From Paludibacter sp. (GTDB taxonomy: Bacteria; Bacteroidota; Bacteroidia; Bacteroidales; Paludibacteraceae): a stretch of 64,000 nucleotides of DNA. Shown piece by piece: positions 34,526 to 56,822 of the stretch (its first letter is position 1; every line of letters begins with the position of its first letter). Location: assembly GCA_019163375.1 (NCBI GenBank), contig JAFLKK010000001.1, positions 294,638 to 358,637 on the forward strand, given 5' to 3'. The position numbers and the translations under genes were made by a program. The notes under the pieces were generated by a model, which saw only the letters and a program-made list of their open reading frames with translations, ran no database searches and was not told where the DNA came from.

Positions 34526-34601
34526 CGGGATGTAGCTCAGCCCGGTTTAGAGTACTGGTCTGGGGGACCAGTGGTCGCAAGTTCGAATCTTGTCATCCCG
34601 A
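34526..34601 (+). tRNA. tRNA-Pro (anticodon GGG)
   Basis: Folded by hand: acceptor CGGGATG/CATCCCG, U8-A9, D stem GCTC/GAGT, anticodon stem CTGGT/ACCAG with loop CUGGGGG (GGG anticodon, G37), variable loop TGGTC, T arm GCAAG-TTCGAAT-CTTGT, discriminator A. No encoded CCA. Confidence 0.9.
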
Positions 34602-34649
34602 CTGCTATTTATCAAAGGTTTACACGAAAGTGTAAACCTTTTTTATTTG
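34558..34649 (+). repeat. attL: left direct repeat of the island (3' 44 nt of tRNA-Pro plus its terminator)
   Basis: 92 nt, identical to 56730-56822 except for one extra T in the T-run of the right copy. Confidence 0.9.
34614..34646 (+). terminator. rho-independent terminator of tRNA-Pro
   Basis: AAAGGTTTACAC-GAAA-GTGTAAACCTTT followed by a T-run. Duplicated at 56786-56817. Confidence 0.8.
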
Positions 34650-35102
34650 CTACTCTACCGTTTTTCTACCCTTTTTGAGCGATTTAAATATAATAAAATA
34701 CAAATCGAGTGATTTGTAACTCGCTTTGGCTCAATTCGAAACTAAATTTTCAAAAGTGATTATCTCGCTTATTATCGCACATTTTTCATTGCTTGGATAT
34801 GTAAGGTAGCTTATCTTCATTGCAGCGCTATATGAGTCTCTAAATGAGTTTGTATGCTATTTGCATTTGAAGTCTATGCTTGCAATAATGATAAATAAAG
34901 TATATAGTTGTTGTGAAAATTTCATGAAGACATCTCCATTTTCTAATCTGAAACTAAATAGAATATCGGTTTTAATTCTTAGGGTTCTTAAGCGCATTGA
35001 AATTCAGTATTTAGCATTATTTATATATTTATAACATTATCATTTATTTAGTATTTTTGTAATAGAAATTTGACTTAATGAATTTCGTTAATACTTATTA
35101 TT

Positions 35103-35921
35103 ATGGCAAGGCAACTTGGACATGTAAAGTACGGAGGTACTATCGGCGAAATTCGCCATTTCAAGATTAAAGGTATGAAAGGCAATTTTGCCGGTTTAAA
35201 AGGAGGAGCAACAGGTGATCAAATTAAAAATGATCCGGGCTTTGTGAGAACACGTGAAAATATGAATGAGTTTGGTGGTTGTGCCAATGCAGGGCGTTCT
35301 GTACGAGTAGGATTGAATATGCTTATGAAACAAATGAGTGATTCACAATTGACTGGTCGATTAACTGGGATTATGAAGAAAATCAACTTGGAAGATCAAA
35401 CAGAAGCTCGTGGATATCGTGCAATTTTGATTTCTACACAAGGTAAGTATTTACAAGGGTTGCATTTCAACAAAAACGTTAGTTTTGACAGTTCTTTCTT
35501 GCCTCTTGTAAACTTGACAAACTCAGGTGATGCTGTAAGTTCCACCATGGAAATTGCACCATTCAATCCAATGAATAGTGTAATTGCTCCTGCAGGTGCT
35601 ACTCATTTCCGTTTGATTAATGCATTATCAGTTATTTCGGATTTTGCTTACAATGCAACTACTGGCATTTATGAGGCAATTGAGCCATCATTAAATGAGC
35701 TTTCGAATGTTGCTTATTCGGATTATTTGGATTTGAAGACTGAAATTACTGCACCAACATTAATTGAAAGTGCCCTTCCAGGAGCACCACAATTGACAGG
35801 AAGTACAACTGTTTTGAATTCTGTTGGTATTGAGTTTTATCAACAAGCTGGTTCAGGGTATTATTTGCTAAATGCAGGTCATGCTTTAAAAATTCAAAAC
35901 GTAGTTTTACCAGTTTCTTAG
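35103..35921 (+). CDS. hypothetical protein (272 aa), the only plus-strand CDS in the island
   Basis: Clean ORF with a TATTTTTG box at 35052-35059 and a terminator at 35977-36007. No recognisable catalytic motif. The N-terminus MARQLGHVKYGGTIGEI...VRTRENM vaguely recalls small conserved Bacteroidota proteins of unknown function. Confidence 0.65.
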   Translation: MARQLGHVKYGGTIGEIRHFKIKGMKGNFAGLKGGATGDQIKNDPGFVRTRENMNEFGGCANAGRSVRVGLNMLMKQMSDSQLTGRLTGIMKKINLEDQTEARGYRAILISTQGKYLQGLHFNKNVSFDSSFLPLVNLTNSGDAVSSTMEIAPFNPMNSVIAPAGATHFRLINALSVISDFAYNATTGIYEAIEPSLNELSNVAYSDYLDLKTEITAPTLIESALPGAPQLTGSTTVLNSVGIEFYQQAGSGYYLLNAGHALKIQNVVLPVS

Positions 35922-35976
35922 GATTCCAGTAAAAAAAGCCTCCAATTATAACATTGAGAAAATGTTATATTTCAGA

Positions 35977-36007
35977 AAAGGGTGTTCCGCAAGGATCACC
36001 CTTTTTT
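35977..36007 (+). terminator. rho-independent terminator
   Basis: GGGTGTTCC-GCAA-GGATCACCC (one mismatch) followed by TTTTTT. Confidence 0.75.
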
Positions 36008-36025
36008 AGTTGTTATGCACAAAGG

Positions 36026-36033
36026 TATTTTTG
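36026..36033 (+). promoter_or_regulatory. -7 promoter box TATTTTTG at the start of the ORF-free region
   Basis: TAnnTTTG match directly after the terminator and directly before the four CTTATGTA repeats (36045-36088). Confidence 0.35.
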
Positions 36034-36039
36034 TCATGA

Positions 36040-37626
36040 GTGCACTTATGTAGGGCTTATGTATGACTTATGTATGCTTCATGTATGGATAGCGGTGTTA
36101 GAAATTTGAGGTCGTTAGAAGCCATGAAATGGCTAAAAATGCTCAGTTGTAAAAATCCTCGTTGAGTTACGTAAATTCTAATCCAGATAAAAACTACTTC
36201 ACATACAAAACCAAAGGTAAACCACTCTTTCTGCACGCGCAGCGTAAACCATCTTTATTTTTCTTTTTCCGAAGTATTATTATGTCGCAAAATAAGAAGA
36301 CGGTAGTAATCCACATTATATTGCACGTAGTGCCAAGCACGTTCACAAAGAATGAAAAGCGATAAATGCCCCTCATAAAAAGGGGCTGGGGTTTTCATTG
36401 TTTGTATTCCGCTGTCCCCTATTGGTCAAAAGCGGTTCGGGAAAAACCACATTGATAAATTTACCTATTTTTGCCGAACGGCTTTTGCGGGGCATTAAAG
36501 TCAACTCGTCACATTTCTTACTTGGTTTTATTTAAACCAAGCAAGGTATGTGTACCGTTCTGCCTATTTGAAAAATGGTTTTGATAAGCTATTCGGTTAT
36601 CAATATCATTTATATGCGATATTGGCGGAACGCCTTAAAACGCAAGCTTTGCTTGTATTCATTCTTTCCTTACTGCCTATTTGGCGTTTATCTTTTTTGG
36701 GGCTAACTCGTCGCAGGGAAAGAAAAATATACCATTGGGTTAGCGTTGGAAAAAGCATAGGTGGCGAGGAAACGGAATGGCACAAGGCGTTGGGGAATGG
36801 AATGGAGTTTAACTGGTTGCTTTTGTGGGAGGAAGGTTGCAAATTTTGCAAGGTTTTCAACGTGGGTGGATAAGCAACCGTTGAACGAAATGGAATGACA
36901 GCGTGGATTTGTGGCATGGAGTGACTAAACCACTTATGCTGTGGGGTGCTGAGGTGGGTGAAATGAACGAAAGCGGAATGAAGTGTAAGGAATCGTAGTG
37001 AATGAGTATTTCGAAATGAATGTAGAGTCTGGAACGAAATGAGCAAAGAGAATGAACCGACTGCAAGCACATGGAAATAAAACACGATATGTTTTTCTTT
37101 TCACTGCGCAACTGTTGGGTGGTGGGGAAATCTTGAGGTTTTATATTGCCGGAACGGCTAAACAACTCACCGATTAGGTGTTTTATTCTTTCCGCTCTCC
37201 CTTTAGGGGCTTATTCTTCGGGCAGCGGAGCGGGACAAAGCGTTGATTTTGTGCGGCTATTATACATAATTTGGTTATGGGCTTCCCTATTGATTTGCCG
37301 TCAGGCAAGGGAACGACCATAACTACATGTTATGTATAATAGCTTTGAGTTGTTTTTTTTCTGGCGCAAGTGCAGTACGGTGGTGGTGGTTGGAGTGCAA
37401 ACGTCTTTTTTGCCTTTTGCAAAAAGTGTGACAGAAAAAAACAACAGAAGGGTGGATTGTGCGGAAGCCGACAAAAAGACCGTGCAAGCCCAGAGGAACG
37501 AGGGGCGGGGATTTTTGGCGGCTGGGGATTGCCCCGTGGAGCTGCCCGTAATTTACTTTCAGGTGAAGCCTGACCGCATTTTTGATAAATACTCTTCGTT
37601 TGATTTGAAGTGTGGAAATAAAAAAA
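36040..37626 (+). ncRNA. candidate long non-coding transcript, or a decayed remnant (ORF-free, G-rich on the + strand)
   Basis: No credible ORF in 1.6 kb. G:C is about 3:1 over 36781-37080 (98 G, 34 C by hand count), with 8 GAATG copies, several hairpins, and promoter-like and terminator-like elements at the ends. Strand and ends are inferred only. Confidence 0.25.
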
Positions 37627-37653
37627 ATATCCTACTTGTAATTAGTAGGATAT
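37614..37653 (-). terminator. rho-independent terminator of the Panacea-associated operon
   Basis: Perfect 10-bp stem ATATCCTACT/AGTAGGATAT (37627-37653) abutting the stop codon. On the - strand it is followed by an 8-T run. Confidence 0.85.
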
Positions 37654-38141
37654 TAAATAAGATTATATTTCTTTTTTATTTTTGGCTCAATGGTTTCTGA
37701 ATTTTTTATGAGTTTTAATGCATCGACAAAGTCTGATTCAGATAGTAGGCCTTTATCTTTGCCATCTGATTTAAGTCTTGTTCTGTCGATTGGAAATAAT
37801 TGACTACAATCTAAAGTGCTTTTATACTTTAAAAAATGTGGATAATCTTTTTGCAGTAAAGGATATTGAAGATCGGAAAGTTCAGTCGTAAGTTCATTTG
37901 ATTCAGAATTAATAAGAAAAGTAGCATATAGATAGCGGTCGTTGTCATTAGAAATAATTACAACATATTTTCTTCTTGTATCGTATTTTCCCTTTAATAT
38001 TAAACCATCTTCTTCAGATAATATAATTTCAATTATCCTTCCTGGAACTAATTTTTCATCAGTGACTTTTTCTTTTTCTTTTTGCTCAATGACCTTGTCC
38101 ATTTTTAATTTTTCGAGCACTTTCTTCCAATCAGCAACCAC
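37653..38141 (-). CDS. hypothetical protein, candidate toxin partner of the Panacea-domain protein
   Basis: 162 aa. Overlaps the upstream DUF4065 gene by 11 nt. The segment PGRIIEIIL...RRKYVVIISND...YATFLINSE loosely resembles the PemK/MazF-type SH3-barrel pattern (weak). Confidence 0.6.
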   Translation of the reverse strand: MVADWKKVLEKLKMDKVIEQKEKEKVTDEKLVPGRIIEIILSEEDGLILKGKYDTRRKYVVIISNDNDRYLYATFLINSESNELTTELSDLQYPLLQKDYPHFLKYKSTLDCSQLFPIDRTRLKSDGKDKGLLSESDFVDALKLIKNSETIEPKIKKKYNLI

Positions 38142-38703
38142 CTTTCAGAGATATATTTAAAATATGCATGTTGCGTATATAATCCAACATTCCATCTGTT
38201 GCATTATCAGCTTTAGCTATCTCCAATATGGTCATACGATCATTTTCTGGGTCTACCATTCTACTTTTACTTGCACTTAACCACGCTGCATCATGTGATT
38301 TTTTAGACAATAGATAAGATTTCTTATCCTTGCATTTTTCAAAAGAATAATCTAAACATTTAATATCAGAAACTGATAATTCGTCTAAATCAGGTTCTAT
38401 CTGAGAAAAAACGATTTTATTCTTGATTTCTATACCAGAAATAAATGTTTGAACATCATCAGAATTCTGATTGTTTTTATTCTCCAAAGCTAGAAAAGCG
38501 TTGTATGCAAATGACGGAACTGGGCCGTGCTGTTTTGCATGAAAAGTTTCGTTAATTATAACTCTGCCATAGGTTGATAGGTGTCTTTGTTGGGCAAAGT
38601 AAATAATTTTGAAAAGTTTTATATAGTCTACACCTTCTGGAAATTTGTTTAGAATGTACAGAACGGTGGCTCTAATCTTTAATAAATCGTCTTTAGACTT
38701 CAT
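38131..38703 (-). CDS. Panacea (DUF4065, SocA-like) domain protein, putative antitoxin
   Basis: 190 aa. KLFKIIYFAQQRHLSTYGRVIINETFHAKQHGPVPS matches the DUF4065 core pattern as I recall it. Confidence 0.7.
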   Translation of the reverse strand: MKSKDDLLKIRATVLYILNKFPEGVDYIKLFKIIYFAQQRHLSTYGRVIINETFHAKQHGPVPSFAYNAFLALENKNNQNSDDVQTFISGIEIKNKIVFSQIEPDLDELSVSDIKCLDYSFEKCKDKKSYLLSKKSHDAAWLSASKSRMVDPENDRMTILEIAKADNATDGMLDYIRNMHILNISLKGGC

Positions 38704-46845: not shown

Positions 46846-49500
46846 CTATTTTGTCATTTTCTCGTATAATTTAAACAAACACGCCAAGCGTTCTTCATCA
46901 TTGTTGAATGGAGCGGACTGATAGCAACCATCCACAGCCAAGTCTAAAGCATGGTGTGCTGCCCGTAAATCAGTCGGCATTTTGTTGGGGTCGTACATTT
47001 CGGCCAATGTTTTCTCAGTGTAATTTTCTCGTGTCAGCAGTACTTCTTCGGCTAAGGCTTCTATAATCTTTTTCTTGTTTAAAGAGATTTCGGGGAAGGG
47101 GAAAGAATTATAACATAAGCTTGTATATCGATAATCCATTTTTAGTTTGCCTCCAATTGTTTTAAGCCATACAATATTCATAGCGGAAGTCATTACACCA
47201 AATAACCATAATGGTGCATCAGAGATTGTATAACATGCATTTGTGACTACTGAATTACTATCAGAATAATCCATAGGTATATATATTCTATTTGAAGACG
47301 AAGTTGAAGGAATTATTAATGTTTTAGAATTGCATGCGTTAAATTCCCGAAACTGGTGAGGTCGTTGTGCTAACTTTCTTGCACCCTCGTCAGAACTTTG
47401 AATACGAATTTGAGCAGTTTTTTCGATTCGTTGTTTAATAAATGGAATTTGCTCTGCATTTTCGCGTTCTTCATCGGAAATCCATAAGCAATAACGAACT
47501 AGCCCATTTATAAAATCAGCAGAACTAAACAATTTTTTTATGTATTTTATTGAATCCGGGAATTGAGTTGTCAAATCGACTCTATCTGTTTCTGACAGCA
47601 AAAGATTGCCACCATCATAAGGCATACACCCTCTTATTATTAATGGAAATTTTGATAAACTATTTGTATGCTTTTTTACAATCAAATTATCACCCACGAT
47701 TAAATATGGATTTATATTGCTTACTTCCATTTTTGATACACCTTCGAAAATTGTACTCTTTTTGTGTTTTTCCTTATTTATTAAGCCAATTATAACACAA
47801 AAGACAGCTGCATTCTGCGTAGCATTATTACTCCACTTAAATGATAAATGAGCAAAGTCAATAAGTATATCTGAATTTAAAATAGGTGTCCATAATGGAT
47901 CTACCATTTCGCCTTGACATACTGAATTTGTACTTACAAAAGCACATTTAGCATTCGAGGATTTTAAATACTCAGACCCTTTAATGAACCAAATTCCAAT
48001 GTAATCAATTTTTTTATAGTTTGCATATTTTCCGATTGCAATGGTTCTATCTCTTTGTTGAAATTCATCAAGCTTTGCACTTCCCAAATACGGCGGATTC
48101 CCCATAACAAAAACCTCTTCTTCCGGAGTATGCGGACATACCTCGTTCCAATCTATGCGACAGGCATTGTCTTCACGAATGTTGTCGATATTTTTGAGTG
48201 GAAGCGCTTCAATCTTTACATCAGAAAATGCTTTTGTGAATAGCGCGTTCATTTGGTGTTCGGCAAGCCACAGTGAGAGCATGGCTATTTCGTGGGCAAA
48301 ACTATCTATCTCAACACCATAGAACTGCTTGATACTGATATTAGTAAAAGGAAAAGCGTGTGAACCGGTGAGTTCGGCAATGCGTTTCCATATACGGATT
48401 TCAAGTTCGCGAAGTTTTTTATATGTAATTATAAGGAAGTTACCGCTGCCACAAGCAGGGTCAAAGAATTTCATTTTGGAAATGCGAATCAACAAGGTGT
48501 TGAGTTGCTTTTCGCTGTTTTCAGCTTTTAAGTATGCCTCATTCAATTCGTTCAGAAAAAGTGGTTGTATAAGTTTTAGGATATTAGGCACGCTGGTGTA
48601 GTGCATCCCGAAATTTCCTCGAAGTTCAGGTGTCACTACCCCTTGAAACATTGAGCCAAAAATATCGGGGTTAATTTCGCCCCAATTAAGTGTACCACAC
48701 TCTAAAATGATTTTTCGAGCTTTGTATCCCAATTGTGGAATGGTAATACGTTGGCTAAACAATCCTCCGTTTACATAAGGAAACTGTTTAATCACGTTAG
48801 GCAAGTCGAGGCGAGCATTGTTATCCATCACATTGAAAATGGTATCTAATGCTTCCGCTAAATCACTACCATCGTCTTGCGTACATTGCTTAATGTAGTT
48901 TGAGAAAATGTCTTTTTCGAAAATTTTGGTATCCTCGGCAAAAAAGCAAAAAAGCAGGCGGGTCATAAATATATTCAAATCGTGCACATCCGATTCGGAC
49001 GAAATTTCGTTCTGTCTGCGGATTTCGTTGTGAAGCTTTGCCATTTTTACTGCTGCTTTTACATCTGCATCAGCTTCTTCTGCAATGAAAAAACGATCAT
49101 TAGCTTCGCCTGCCAACGGATAAAAGAATTGAAAATCGAGCCAGATTTTATCTACCTTGTTTTCATACGATTCTCTTTCTTTGGTATCGTAGGCAAGCAG
49201 TGTTTCGCCATCGCTAACAGCTATTATCCGTGGGTTTTGTTTAGCAATTTTATCATCTTTCTTTAATGCTTCTAATTCTTCAGTAAGTTGGATAGTTGTT
49301 ACTGGTTTGTAGGCAAATTGTTTTTTAACAAGTACGCCATCAAAAGTAGCCAAATTACCTTTGCCAGCTTTGTAACGCTTTATATAGGTGTCGCTTGTAC
49401 CAAATGCCTTCAATAGTTTGTAACCAATTTCTAAGGGGAGAGTTTCTGAACTTAACTTTTTGAGTTCTTTTTCAATGTCAGAGTATTTGATAGAAGCCAT
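46846..49500 (-). CDS. MmeI-family (type IIL-like) N6-adenine DNA methyltransferase
   Basis: 884 aa. MHYTSVPNILKLIQPLF, motif I FFDPACGSGNFLI, motif IV GNPPYLG, and an MmeI-type C-terminus MYDPNKMPTDLRAAHHALDLAVD...ERLACLFKLYEKM. Confidence 0.85.
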   Translation of the reverse strand: MASIKYSDIEKELKKLSSETLPLEIGYKLLKAFGTSDTYIKRYKAGKGNLATFDGVLVKKQFAYKPVTTIQLTEELEALKKDDKIAKQNPRIIAVSDGETLLAYDTKERESYENKVDKIWLDFQFFYPLAGEANDRFFIAEEADADVKAAVKMAKLHNEIRRQNEISSESDVHDLNIFMTRLLFCFFAEDTKIFEKDIFSNYIKQCTQDDGSDLAEALDTIFNVMDNNARLDLPNVIKQFPYVNGGLFSQRITIPQLGYKARKIILECGTLNWGEINPDIFGSMFQGVVTPELRGNFGMHYTSVPNILKLIQPLFLNELNEAYLKAENSEKQLNTLLIRISKMKFFDPACGSGNFLIITYKKLRELEIRIWKRIAELTGSHAFPFTNISIKQFYGVEIDSFAHEIAMLSLWLAEHQMNALFTKAFSDVKIEALPLKNIDNIREDNACRIDWNEVCPHTPEEEVFVMGNPPYLGSAKLDEFQQRDRTIAIGKYANYKKIDYIGIWFIKGSEYLKSSNAKCAFVSTNSVCQGEMVDPLWTPILNSDILIDFAHLSFKWSNNATQNAAVFCVIIGLINKEKHKKSTIFEGVSKMEVSNINPYLIVGDNLIVKKHTNSLSKFPLIIRGCMPYDGGNLLLSETDRVDLTTQFPDSIKYIKKLFSSADFINGLVRYCLWISDEERENAEQIPFIKQRIEKTAQIRIQSSDEGARKLAQRPHQFREFNACNSKTLIIPSTSSSNRIYIPMDYSDSNSVVTNACYTISDAPLWLFGVMTSAMNIVWLKTIGGKLKMDYRYTSLCYNSFPFPEISLNKKKIIEALAEEVLLTRENYTEKTLAEMYDPNKMPTDLRAAHHALDLAVDGCYQSAPFNNDEERLACLFKLYEKMTK

Positions 49501-55253: not shown

Positions 55254-56558
55254 CTACAATACCTTCACTGCTTCATCAATTACATTGCTGTTAAAGCTAT
55301 CGAGATAGGTGTTTGTTGTTTTAAGGTCTTTATGACCTAAGATTTGAGAAATGACTTCTCTTGGCACTTCATTGTTCTGTAAACTCATAGCCATAGTATG
55401 ACGACTAACATAAGAGGTCAGATTTATGTCACTGATTTCAAATTCATCTGCCAAGCCATCAAGATATGAATTTAGTTTTTTCAATCTTGTTTTAAGGTGA
55501 TTGTAAAGTTTTTCGCCAGTGAGATTTTCAATAGTTACAATTGGCAATAAGTAAGTATCAACAGGCTTCTTCATCTCGGAAAGTTCATTGATAAGCGTTT
55601 GAAGCTCTTCTGATAGCTTGATATTTATTGCCTTAGAACCTTGGCTGTTTTTTGTTTTGTGGCGTTTATATACAATATAAAGCCCATTCTCATACCTCTT
55701 AATATTGTCAGGTGTTAAGCGTGCCATATCCACGAAACTCATTCCATAGCAAAAGTATGAAAAAAGAAATAACTTTCGAGCATATTCATTAACTTTTTTA
55801 TCTGAACTTGTGGTTTTGATCTTAATGAGGTATTCAGAAGGTAAATATCGTTTCTCGGTCTCTTCTCCTAATTTGGCAACTTCAAAACCTCCTTTTCCAA
55901 ATGGATATGTCGTTGGACTTGCTTCTTTTGCCTCAATGGCCATATTTAATGCTGCACGCAATGATTTGAAATAAATTCTTCGTGTATTGCCGGAACAACC
56001 TTTCCGTTGAACTGTTCTTTTGTTGCCTTTAGTGCTTGTGTAGATAGTTTCTCGTGGCATCTGCATGAAAGTGTCTAATGCCCGGATATATTTAATGTCT
56101 ATTTCCGAAAATAGTTTCTTATCGAAATTTTTATCGAAAAGTTCGAGCATATCCAAAGTGCGTTGATAGCAAATTGCATTTCCTGTGTGATCTGTTTCTT
56201 TCAACGTTTTTATGAGATTCTCAAAAAAAGGTTTAACTTTGCCTTTCTTTGAGCGATTAAGGAATGCTTCTTCAAATTGGTTGAGTGTCCAGTCGATTTT
56301 GTTTTCGTCAAAATCTTTTATGGTCTTTTCCGCTTTCGTTTCCTGTTCGTTCAGATAAGCATTGTTTTTTTCGTGGAGTGGATTAATACGTTTATCTTTT
56401 TTGAAACGACCGAAGACTTCATCCCATTGGCTTGGTGTTGCAGTCATATTTAAGCCAATGAATTTCTTTTGACCGCTTTTAGAAATGCGTAAACAGATTG
56501 GATTTGTACCGTCTTTATTGGTATCAAAAGTGCGAAGGAAAATTTTAAACTTTGCCAT
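55254..56558 (-). CDS. tyrosine-type site-specific integrase (Bacteroidota arm-binding N-terminus)
   Basis: 434 aa. Catalytic-region motifs MSFVDMARL, SYVSRHTMAMS, ILGHKDLKTTNTYL. Sits 171 bp from attR. Confidence 0.9.
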   Translation of the reverse strand: MAKFKIFLRTFDTNKDGTNPICLRISKSGQKKFIGLNMTATPSQWDEVFGRFKKDKRINPLHEKNNAYLNEQETKAEKTIKDFDENKIDWTLNQFEEAFLNRSKKGKVKPFFENLIKTLKETDHTGNAICYQRTLDMLELFDKNFDKKLFSEIDIKYIRALDTFMQMPRETIYTSTKGNKRTVQRKGCSGNTRRIYFKSLRAALNMAIEAKEASPTTYPFGKGGFEVAKLGEETEKRYLPSEYLIKIKTTSSDKKVNEYARKLFLFSYFCYGMSFVDMARLTPDNIKRYENGLYIVYKRHKTKNSQGSKAINIKLSEELQTLINELSEMKKPVDTYLLPIVTIENLTGEKLYNHLKTRLKKLNSYLDGLADEFEISDINLTSYVSRHTMAMSLQNNEVPREVISQILGHKDLKTTNTYLDSFNSNVIDEAVKVL

Positions 56559-56577: not shown

Positions 56578-56620
56578 TACTCTACCTTTTTACTCTACCT
56601 TTTTTCTACCCTTTTTGATA
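56578..56620. promoter_or_regulatory. candidate integrase arm-type sites (CTCTACC / CTACCC x3, 13-bp period)
   Basis: CTCTACC at 56580 and 56593 and CTACCC at 56606, separated by T5-6. A near-identical 28-nt string, TACTCTACC(G/T)TTTTTCTACCCTTTTTGA, occurs just inside attL at 34651-34678. Confidence 0.45.
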
Positions 56621-56729: not shown

Positions 56730-56822
56730 GTCTGGGGGACCAGTGGTCGCAAGTTCGAATCTTGTCATCCCGACTGCTATTTATCAAAGGTTTACACGAA
56801 AGTGTAAACCTTTTTTTATTTG
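56730..56822 (+). repeat. attR: right direct repeat (non-functional 3' tRNA-Pro fragment plus terminator)
   Basis: Matches 34558-34649. Lacks the 5' 32 nt of the tRNA. Confidence 0.9.

Follow-up and report, generated by a model that had tools for sequence, protein, structure and literature searches.

A family of large modular structured RNAs linked to an uncharacterised protein gene at the attL end of tRNA-integrating islands in Bacteroidota

Introduction

What is encoded by a 1.6-kb stretch of a genomic island that holds no credible open reading frame (ORF), has a strong excess of G over C and is rich in the pentamer GAATG? The question is raised by positions 36009-37626 of a 64,000-nucleotide (nt) stretch of Paludibacter sp. 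DNA (GenBank assembly GCA_019163375.1, contig JAFLKK010000001.1, positions 294,638 to 358,637 of the forward strand), referred to here as the window. An initial annotation, made from the letters of the window alone, offered two answers, namely a structured or protein-sponging RNA carried as island cargo, or a pseudogenised foreign fragment. Homology and covariation show that the region is to be read as encoding a functional, highly structured non-coding RNA on the + strand, which represents a modular RNA family of kilobase scale. This RNA is shown to be genetically linked to a large uncharacterised protein family, represented in the window by a protein of 272 amino acids (aa) encoded just upstream, and the cassette formed by the two is shown to sit next to attL in islands of Bacteroidota that integrate at tRNA genes. 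The RNA family is new and uncatalogued. To our knowledge few bacterial RNAs are both large and intricately folded, and for the majority (GOLLD, ROOL, OLE, raiA) no function is known.

Evidence for a structured non-coding RNA

The ORF-free interval is bounded by a terminator hairpin at 35977-36007 and a further hairpin at 37627-37653. The ORFs of at least 40 aa within it overlap one another on both strands and are not protein-like, and Pfam gave zero matches for ten ORF translations from the stretch, which bears out the view of the initial annotation that no credible ORF is present.

Homologous regions were found in other genomes across Bacteroidota. A scan of species-representative genomes yielded 505 stretches encoding relatives of the 272-aa protein, in Paludibacter and other Bacteroidales, Sphingobacteriales, Chitinophagaceae, Cytophagales, Saprospiraceae and Flavobacteriales, with several genomes carrying more than one copy. 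In each of these groups, the Bacteroidales being represented by Paludibacter, blastn and nhmmer located counterparts of the window's non-coding DNA downstream of the gene homologue and invariably on its strand. When searched by iterated nhmmer profiles, 35 of the 48 Bacteroidota loci with at least 3 kb of downstream sequence carried the non-coding homologue, and at least 120 metagenome contigs matched a two-block pattern taken from the GAAUG-rich domain described below. Cultured carriers include Pedobacter cryophilus AR-3-17, Flavobacterium agrisoli SE-1-e, F. taihuense NAS39, Mariniflexile fucanivorans DSM 18792 and Porphyromonadaceae sp. NP-X. Blastn of the region against plasmid and phage databases returned no similar DNA. 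A search of the window and eight homologous loci against the 4227 models of Rfam 15 at gathering thresholds recovered only tRNAs, and with E-values of up to 10 admitted for 35500-38200 the best sub-threshold matches were terminator look-alikes. The literature searched on DUF6943 (a family encoded beside many copies of the RNA), on large RNAs of Bacteroidota and on recent GOLLD and ROOL work holds no description of this RNA or of DUF6943, which does not prove that they are unpublished.

The covariation evidence concerns two domains, designated A-M-B and T, whose positions are given in the next section. The structure derived by RNAalifold for the T domain from 18 genome sequences has 81 pairs, 34 of them compensated, with 95.7% of cells paired as against 40-47% in slid controls and a covariation score of 0.278 as against about 0.045. 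This structure was transferred, via the window sequence, to an independent set of 30 metagenome sequences, none of which reaches 93% identity to a sequence used in deriving it; 96.0% of cells were paired (slid controls 40-47%), 26 of the 81 pairs were compensated (3-12) and the covariation score was 0.204 (0.03-0.06). For the A-M-B domain, 12 sequences gave 62 pairs, of which 34 were compensated, with 94.6% of cells paired (slid controls 35-48%) and a covariation score of 0.383 (about 0.08). In all three tests, 0 of 500 shuffles equalled the observed pairing or covariation. The window sequence on its own folds into the same helices, with minimum free energy z-scores of -3.3 for T and -3.5 for A-M-B. 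G·U outnumbered A·C by 88:12 and 36:6, a count that is partly biased in that RNAalifold accepts G·U, and certain columns are invariantly G·U; the large excess of G·U over A·C indicates that the + strand is the folded strand.

A coding sequence or pseudogene is ruled out. Codon-phase variability is flat (0.17, 0.17, 0.19 and 0.22, 0.23, 0.22), giving no 3-nt periodicity, insertions and deletions that are not multiples of three outnumber those that are by 118:9 and 168:8, and the ORF translations have no protein-family match. It is on these three grounds that the pseudogenised foreign fragment of the initial annotation is rejected. Nor, in tblastn searches, were the DUF6943 and staphylococcal-type nuclease (SNase) genes of relatives found hidden as remnants in the window. 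The structured non-coding RNA that had been put forward as the first answer is supported, both by the homologues across Bacteroidota and by the covariation in the two domains.

Architecture of the RNA family

Mapping of segments onto relatives revealed a common plan consisting of a variable 5' part, (A-B)n, A-M-B, T and a short 3' hairpin. Relatives have one to five tandem copies of the GAAUG domain followed by a single T domain. The A-B module measures about 300-480 nt, the repeated closed domain about 320-480 nt, the period of the modules in arrays, marked by GGGUGGUGGGG, is about 300-630 nt, the T domain ranges from about 330 to 450 nt, and the total length of the RNA runs from about 0.5 to more than 2.5 kb. 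The window holds a minimal version with one A-M-B domain and the T domain, in which the following features are distinguished:

36044-36087, no strand assigned: four 11-nt tandem direct repeats, ACTTATGTAGG / GCTTATGTATG / ACTTATGTATG / CTTCATGTATG (repeat search)
36191-36600, + strand: variable 5' region, Q5 (nhmmer mapping to loci L028, L045 and L053)
36713-37107, + strand: GAAUG-rich closed domain, A-M-B (RNAalifold, covariation)
37117-37127, + strand: G-tract GGGUGGUGGGG, which ends every B module (53 copies)
37143-37213, + strand: inter-domain linker with three small hairpins (direct-repeat families, covarying stems)
37219-37548, + strand: T domain, the best conserved part, with a four-helix junction (RNAalifold, covariation)
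37379-37393, + strand: G-tract loop GGUGGUGGUGGUUGG at the tip of helix P3 (conservation across copies)
37560-37585, + strand: 3' hairpin CAGGU-GAA-GCCUG followed by ACCGCAUUUUUGA (covarying stem, CAGG/CCUG with GUGG/CCAC)
37627-37653, no strand assigned: hairpin ATATCCTACTTGTAATTAGTAGGATAT, terminator of a convergent 162-aa gene (sequence)

The A-M-B domain is closed by a helix of 17 bp (36713-36730 with 37089-37107) and contains inner helices at 36754-36764/36930-36940, 36814-36819/36875-36880 and 36946-36959/37056-37070. It encloses all eight copies of GAATG, at 36775, 36795, 36800, 36893, 36976, 37000, 37018 and 37050, and all three copies of GAACGAAA, at 36883, 36965 and 37032. The GAATG count within 36775-37054 compares with an expectation of 0.78, and 0 of 5000 composition-matched shuffles of that interval reached eight. 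The GC skew has its maximum of +0.53 at 36750-37049, with values of about 0 to 0.2 nearby, and the composition of 36781-37080 is G 98, C 35, A 96 and T 71. Beyond the domain, G-runs occur as GGGTGGTGGGG at 37117 and GGTGGTGGTGGTTGG at 37379 and in the G-rich interval 37501-37526. The motif enrichment exceeds chance by far, and the GAATG, GAACGAAA and G-run motifs are kept in homologues from other classes; across 53 aligned B modules, both the AAUG motifs and the GGGUGGUGGGG at the module end show at least 90% conservation. The repeated domain abounds in GAAUG and GAACGAAA purine stretches that are left unpaired or pair non-canonically. In the consensus fold of A-M-B many AAUG motifs lie opposite another AAUG, in a part where short helices and purine-rich internal loops together form an irregular rod. 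We infer from this modelled fold that the motifs may form A-U steps flanked by G·A pairs, which would give them a structural or protein-platform role rather than that of free sponge sites; the AAUG positions hardly vary, so that covariation is uninformative about such a role.

Most of what the initial annotation recorded of these motifs has stood. The repeated GAAUG motifs and the G-runs are real features conserved in homologues, the excess of G over C in 36781-37080 was recovered with a C count one higher than the 34 given earlier, and G-run clusters were found where they had been placed, near 37116, near 37378 and at 37501-37526. The numbers of GAATG and GAACGAAA copies were right, but every coordinate given for them was 1 too low. 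The hairpins reported at 36367-36385 and 36516-36544 and the pairing of 36428-36439 with 36473-36484 are present, but they belong to the variable 5' part and thus lie outside the two main domains.

The first of these hairpins was confirmed in the sequence; the inverted repeat around the second (36510-36552) is 84% paired over 19 nt and the long-range pairing (36427-36446 with 36468-36487) is 90% paired over 20 nt. Segment Q5 comprises the hairpins 36427-36487 and 36510-36552 together with a hairpin of the linker type, UAUUG-GCAC-GUA-GUGC, at 36316-36339. This segment is restricted to loci without DUF6943, and its alignment displays compensated hairpins, the Q5 variant being 76-89% identical in other loci. 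The linker between the two domains contains hairpins GCCGGAACGGC at 37148, CACCGAUUAGGUG at 37168 and CUCCCUUUAGGGG at 37197, whose stems covary between loci (GGCG/CGCC with GCAC/GUGC and GCCG/CGGC).

The T domain is built of helices P1 (37219-37234/37533-37548), P2 (37255-37288/37308-37344), P3 (37349-37368/37427-37445) and P4 (37466-37491/37503-37523). The loop of P3 was represented by 95 instances of ACGGUGGUGGYGGUUGGA in 20 variants, with the changes clustering at one-nucleotide spacers; GGUGGUGGYGGUUGG is therefore a candidate two-tier G-quadruplex, with which the conservation pattern is simply consistent. Homology to relatives ends on the right at about 37581, and the RNA itself is likely to terminate with the hairpin and U-run at 37560-37585, which also form the right-hand border of the homology. 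The hairpin at 37627-37653 is outside the homology common to relatives.

On the 5' side, a rightward TAnnTTTG box is conserved in all 12 loci checked, and in many loci a 110-aa excisionase-like ORF of the HTH_17 family stands after the box and before the first RNA module (L036 7632-7964, L041 3670-4002 and about ten more loci), so that the RNA may be co-transcribed with the HTH_17 ORF there. The window has the TAnnTTTG box TATTTTTG, a candidate promoter, at 36026, as annotated at the outset, and this one is conserved in near-identical copies only; the window copy lacks the conserved promoter block, the HTH_17 ORF and DUF6943. In relatives the gene for the protein is followed by a terminator, then by the 11-nt repeats and then mostly by a DUF6943 gene on the opposite strand. 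The repeats at 36044-36087 (YTTATGTAKG) begin about 40 nt past the terminator of the 272-aa gene, and repeats of the form YTTATGKNNG follow the gene in Paludibacter, Pedobacter, Crocinitomicaceae, Porphyromonadaceae and Flavobacterium; such repeats occur in every lineage inspected. They are candidate protein-binding iterons and look like clustered sites for a DNA-binding protein that is itself conserved.

Some copies of the RNA region are interrupted or overlain by other annotation. An IS21 element (IstA, IstB) splits the module array in L017 (8324-10673), and in L025 (9273-10433) the array is split by an opposite-strand gene for a 386-aa protein, which we take, from its sequence alone, to be AlbA_2-like. 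Public gene calls of 107, 41, 67 and 122 aa lie inside the RNA in L001 (1906-2929) and L002 (2718-3086), in the part corresponding to window 36550-37700; they are almost certainly artefacts of ORF calling within a structured RNA.

The 272-aa protein and its linkage to the RNA

Two features immediately upstream of the non-coding stretch make up the protein gene:

35103-35921, + strand: gene for a 272-aa protein of a large uncharacterised family (homologues, no family model)
35977-36007, + strand: intrinsic-terminator-like hairpin and T-run AAAGGGTGTTCCGCAAGGATCACCCTTTTTT, ending the 272-aa gene (sequence)

An equivalent hairpin follows the gene in all relatives inspected. The protein has at least 909 homologues at 60-98% identity, and a profile search of 1.8 billion representatives gave 2873 clusters at 50% identity, all of them stand-alone proteins of about 265 aa. 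It has no match in Pfam, NCBIfam, PHROGs, PADLOC or a sequence-profile search of the PDB, and 0 of 81 diverse family members matched Pfam. With a deep alignment AlphaFold2 returned a model with a predicted local distance difference test (pLDDT) score of 96.4 and a predicted template modelling (pTM) score of 0.87, as compared with a pLDDT of 65 from a shallow alignment, and the model consists of N-terminal beta-hairpins, a helical bundle and a beta-sandwich. Foldseek comparison with the PDB and with viral models (BFVD) produced no neighbour at E of 0.001 or below and only generic beta-sandwiches with TM scores of at most 0.25; the idea that the protein is capsid-like is without support, there being no structural neighbour beyond these.

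Linkage was assessed from both partners. To the 35 of 48 loci found by starting from the gene can be added a count that starts from the RNA: among the matches listed, 16 of the 25 metagenome contigs with more than 3.2 kb upstream have the gene upstream on the same strand. The linkage thus holds from both directions and is not absolute. In L022 and L023 (1846-11019) the gene lies between an integrase, 83% identical to that of the window, and genes for two HTH_17 proteins, DUF3987 and DUF6371.

The island and its neighbouring genes

The cassette starts about 500 nt downstream of a tRNA gene, and the left border of the island is formed as follows:

34526-34602, + strand: tRNA-Pro(GGG), the integration target of the island (ARAGORN, Rfam)
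34558-34644, + strand: attL, an 87-nt direct repeat consisting of the 3' half of the tRNA and a further 42 nt (blastn within the window)

The attL repeat is identical to attR at 56730-56816, delimiting an island of 22 kb (34.6-56.8 kb) in which the cassette comes first. A tyrosine integrase gene at 55254-56558, with Phage_integrase, Arm-DNA-bind_5 and SAM-like domains, adjoins attR, and this enzyme together with 87-nt border repeats that include the tRNA 3' end identifies a tRNA-integrating island. TCTACC-containing repeats (CTACTCTACCGTTTTTCTACCCTTTTTGA) just inside both ends, at 34651-34678 and 56591-56618, are probably arm-type sites of the integrase. The attR side also has genes for two HTH_17 proteins, DUF3987 and DUF6371 with a Zn-ribbon. 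Defence cargo within the island includes an MmeI-type enzyme (46846-49500), a helicase, T5orf172, ORF6N with AlbA_2, a WYL regulator and a Panacea toxin-antitoxin pair. The last of these occupies 37653-38703 on the - strand, where a SocA/Panacea-domain antitoxin gene (38131-38703) overlaps a 162-aa ORF (37653-38141) that has no family match; the two, which run towards the RNA's 3' end, probably constitute a Panacea toxin-antitoxin system.

The cassette is immediately preceded by a same-strand tRNA in 26 of 68 related loci, with eight tRNA species represented, and the tRNA is followed by a terminator and lineage-specific tandem repeats of 9-12 nt of the arm-site type. In at least nine loci the protein gene has an integrase gene as its immediate neighbour. 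The RNA therefore does lie in an island, as the initial annotation had proposed, but it is not free-standing cargo, being linked to the 272-aa gene and to the attL end.

Several other views of the cassette were discarded. No tRNA 3'-end repeats were found within 6 kb downstream of it in 13 loci, and a small self-contained integrative element was rejected for that reason. The att and tRNA sequences have no match to the RNA in the window, which removes the idea of a guide RNA. A phage origin is rejected on the near-absence of both components from the 2.9 million viral contigs of IMG/VR, which contain one match to the protein and two to the RNA.

The genes accompanying the cassette vary. A cytoplasmic SNase is present in most lineages, an M15 peptidase and a 209-aa ORF in Paludibacter, and the flanks in other loci include prokaryotic Argonaute (pAgo) and helicase genes. 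One Paludibacter genome contains three paralogous units of 5.2 kb with 81-94% identity. A unit of 3.55 kb, made up of SNase, the protein gene, DUF6943, a 71-aa ORF and the RNA (L069 5290-8834; further carriers L064, L068, L070, L072, L074, L076-L081 and L090), was 96-98% identical with unrelated flanks in metagenome-assembled genomes of five orders, assigned to Saprospiraceae, Chitinophaga, Cytophagales, Flavobacteriales and Sphingobacteriales. There is no recombinase within this unit, and the combination of high identity and unrelated flanks points to either very recent horizontal spread or mis-binning.

Comparison with known RNA systems

GOLLD (RF01998) and ROOL (RF03087) are likewise very large, ornate non-coding RNAs of bacterial mobile DNA that often lie near tRNA genes. 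In GOLLD the 3' part is conserved and the 5' part variable, and no protein partner has been identified for ROOL (PMC12286853). The RNA described here shares with GOLLD an invariant terminal domain and variable upstream modules, and adjacency to a tRNA. It differs from both in its synteny with a dedicated protein gene and in the tandem repetition of a whole closed domain, and also in its carrier, since it is found on tyrosine-integrase islands and is nearly absent from viral contigs, whereas GOLLD occurs in phages and prophages. The covariance models of GOLLD and ROOL gave no match in the window and eight further loci, nor at E-values of up to 10 on 35500-38200.

The cited accounts of OLE describe a highly structured RNA of about 600 nt that forms a ribonucleoprotein (RNP) with dedicated partner proteins, OapA, OapB and OapC (PMC9723947, PMC12054373). 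OLE is the closest precedent for a reading in which an RNA works with the product of an adjacent gene. The oap genes adjoin the gene for OLE RNA. OLE differs in being a chromosomal housekeeping or stress RNA of Bacillota extremophiles, single-domain and non-modular, and in not being carried on mobile islands. There is no similarity between OLE and the present RNA in sequence or by Rfam model, and the 272-aa protein is unrelated to known families. Restriction to Bacteroidota sets the RNA apart from GOLLD, ROOL and OLE alike.

CsrB and RsmZ also present many copies of a short purine-rich motif on one transcript; there the motif is GGA in hairpin loops, whereas here GAAUG/AAUG is located inside irregular long helices, within large closed domains with long-range helices. 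No CsrB or RsmZ match was returned by Rfam for the window, and a CsrA homologue was not searched for. The RNAs of type III toxin-antitoxin systems (ToxI) resemble the present family as tandem structured units beside a protein gene on mobile or defence DNA. Their repeats are of about 34-36 nt and lie upstream of a ToxN/AbiQ-type gene, as against modules of 300-630 nt downstream of the gene here, with a unique terminal domain after the array; neither Pfam nor PADLOC identified the 272-aa protein as a ToxN-like endoribonuclease. A group II intron or retroelement RNA was discarded on the lack of an Rfam intron match and of a reverse-transcriptase domain among the neighbouring genes scanned.

Proposed function and alternatives

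We consider the chances to be about even that the RNA is a multi-domain scaffold working with the upstream protein as an RNP and that the pair serves the island's own biology. The RNA would provide the scaffold, the 265-272-aa protein encoded just upstream would bind to it to form the RNP, and the purine-rich internal loops and G-tracts would be repeated contact or tertiary-structure sites. The pair would constitute an attL-proximal module of tRNA-integrating genomic islands and would probably serve the island, in its maintenance, its propagation or its conflict with phages, rather than host metabolism. A tentative proposal, in which we have distinctly less confidence, is that the domain-repeat RNA and a protein of unprecedented fold are an RNP machine and the conserved attL-end module of integrative islands, a family very widespread in Bacteroidota, needed for their horizontal spread or replication or else serving as an RNA-based sensor of infection whose effectors (nuclease, peptidase) can be swapped; multivalent assembly would then take place at the tandem domains and at the G-tracts, which might be quadruplexes.

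A number of observations weigh against an RNP that serves the island. The evidence fits a role in the island life cycle and a role in defence alike. As far as the genomes indicate, the link between RNA and protein is genetic only, and the model of the 272-aa protein has no recognisable RNA-binding fold and no structural neighbour in the PDB or among viral models. Among the matches listed, 9 of the 25 contigs approached from the RNA have no gene upstream, and conversely L022 and L023 have the protein gene with no RNA detected, from which it follows that the gene can belong to an island backbone without the RNA. Between L045 and the window the RNA is 89% identical and the protein only 65%, indicating that RNA and gene recombine independently and arguing against tight co-evolution. 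The partner genes (SNase, DUF6943, M15 peptidase with the 209-aa ORF) vary and none is present in the window, and the window copy lacks the promoter block conserved in relatives.

The variation of the accessory genes, which resembles that of defence-system effectors, suggests that the RNA could instead be a component of an abortive-infection type of anti-phage defence, in which RNA and 272-aa protein sense infection or restrain an effector and the swappable neighbours (SNase, DUF6943, M15 peptidase) are the effectors. Such a role would suit an island packed with defence genes, the pAgo and helicases in flanks elsewhere, the horizontal spread of the cassette and its near-absence from viral contigs. 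We regard it as a serious rival, though an unlikely one, given that PADLOC has no match for the 272-aa protein or DUF6943, that the window copy and several others are without any candidate effector, and that a fixed attL position near an excisionase-like gene, across integrase arm types, befits the backbone of an element rather than shuffled cargo. A quaternary assembly of RNA only, of the GOLLD/ROOL type, in which the RNA forms a homo-oligomeric cage or lattice and the protein is a syntenic passenger, would make sense of the independent recombination of RNA and gene and of the RNA loci that lack the gene (9 of 25, among the matches listed); size, ornateness and a conserved 3' with a variable 5' part on a mobile element beside tRNA genes are also as in those RNAs (PMC12286853). 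Yet gene-RNA synteny is maintained across classes, the carriers are islands and not phages, tandem repetition of whole domains is foreign to GOLLD and ROOL, and neither Rfam model matched at E-values up to 10, so that this explanation is decidedly unlikely.

Explanations that assign a simpler task to the RNA fare worse. That the GAAUG repeats sequester a sequence-specific RNA-binding protein, in the way CsrA is titrated by CsrB and RsmZ, would account for eight copies in 280 nt where 0.78 are expected, for conservation of at least 90% in homologues and for multiplication of the motif by module repetition. It is nevertheless improbable, since AAUG faces AAUG in long irregular helices, which suggests a structural role, and CsrB-type RNAs are simple hairpin arrays rather than closed domains of 400 nt plus a separate conserved domain of 330 nt; no candidate binding protein is known and Rfam gave no CsrB-type match. 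About as improbable is a cis-acting replication or transfer element of the island, in which R-loops or primers would arise at an origin from the G-rich transcript, as with ColE1 RNA II or mitochondrial conserved sequence blocks, and the iterons would be initiator sites. The covarying helices, extending over about 700 nt with G·U tolerated, go far beyond the needs of a primer, the module copy number varies from 1 to 5, and the iterons are at least 600 nt away with an opposite-strand gene in between in most loci; these considerations outweigh the strong G over C skew of the transcribed strand, the conserved G-tract at the end of each module, the conserved 11-nt iterons nearby and the primase-like DUF3987 and DUF6371 proteins encoded by the island. 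A decayed remnant, whether a pseudogenised foreign gene or a dead fragment of a mobile element, can hardly be credited at all. The missing ORF, the odd composition, the overlapping junk ORFs and the absence from the window copy of DUF6943 and of the relatives' conserved promoter could be taken as decay, but the non-coding sequence has been kept in several classes, more than 60 of its base pairs show compensatory changes, identities of 70-90% exclude the homologous regions being recent copies of one sequence, and the Q5 variant without DUF6943 is itself conserved elsewhere at 76-89% identity; the lack of periodicity, the frame-breaking indels and the lack of a protein-family match point the same way.

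Significance

Each new class of large RNA has so far been a source of new RNA biology and structures. The present family is unusual in its tandem array of closed domains, each of about 400 nt, ahead of an invariant terminal domain, in a partner protein family of about 2900 clusters and in a defined attL setting, and its occurrence in cultured isolates makes it experimentally accessible. It also has a bearing on annotation, as gene callers place spurious ORFs on the RNA region, as in L001 and L002. The family offers new targets for RNA structure determination and a direct handle on what large RNAs do for mobile elements; if the RNA and its partner protein do prove to be an RNP machine, they would represent a new class of RNA-dependent mobile-element function.

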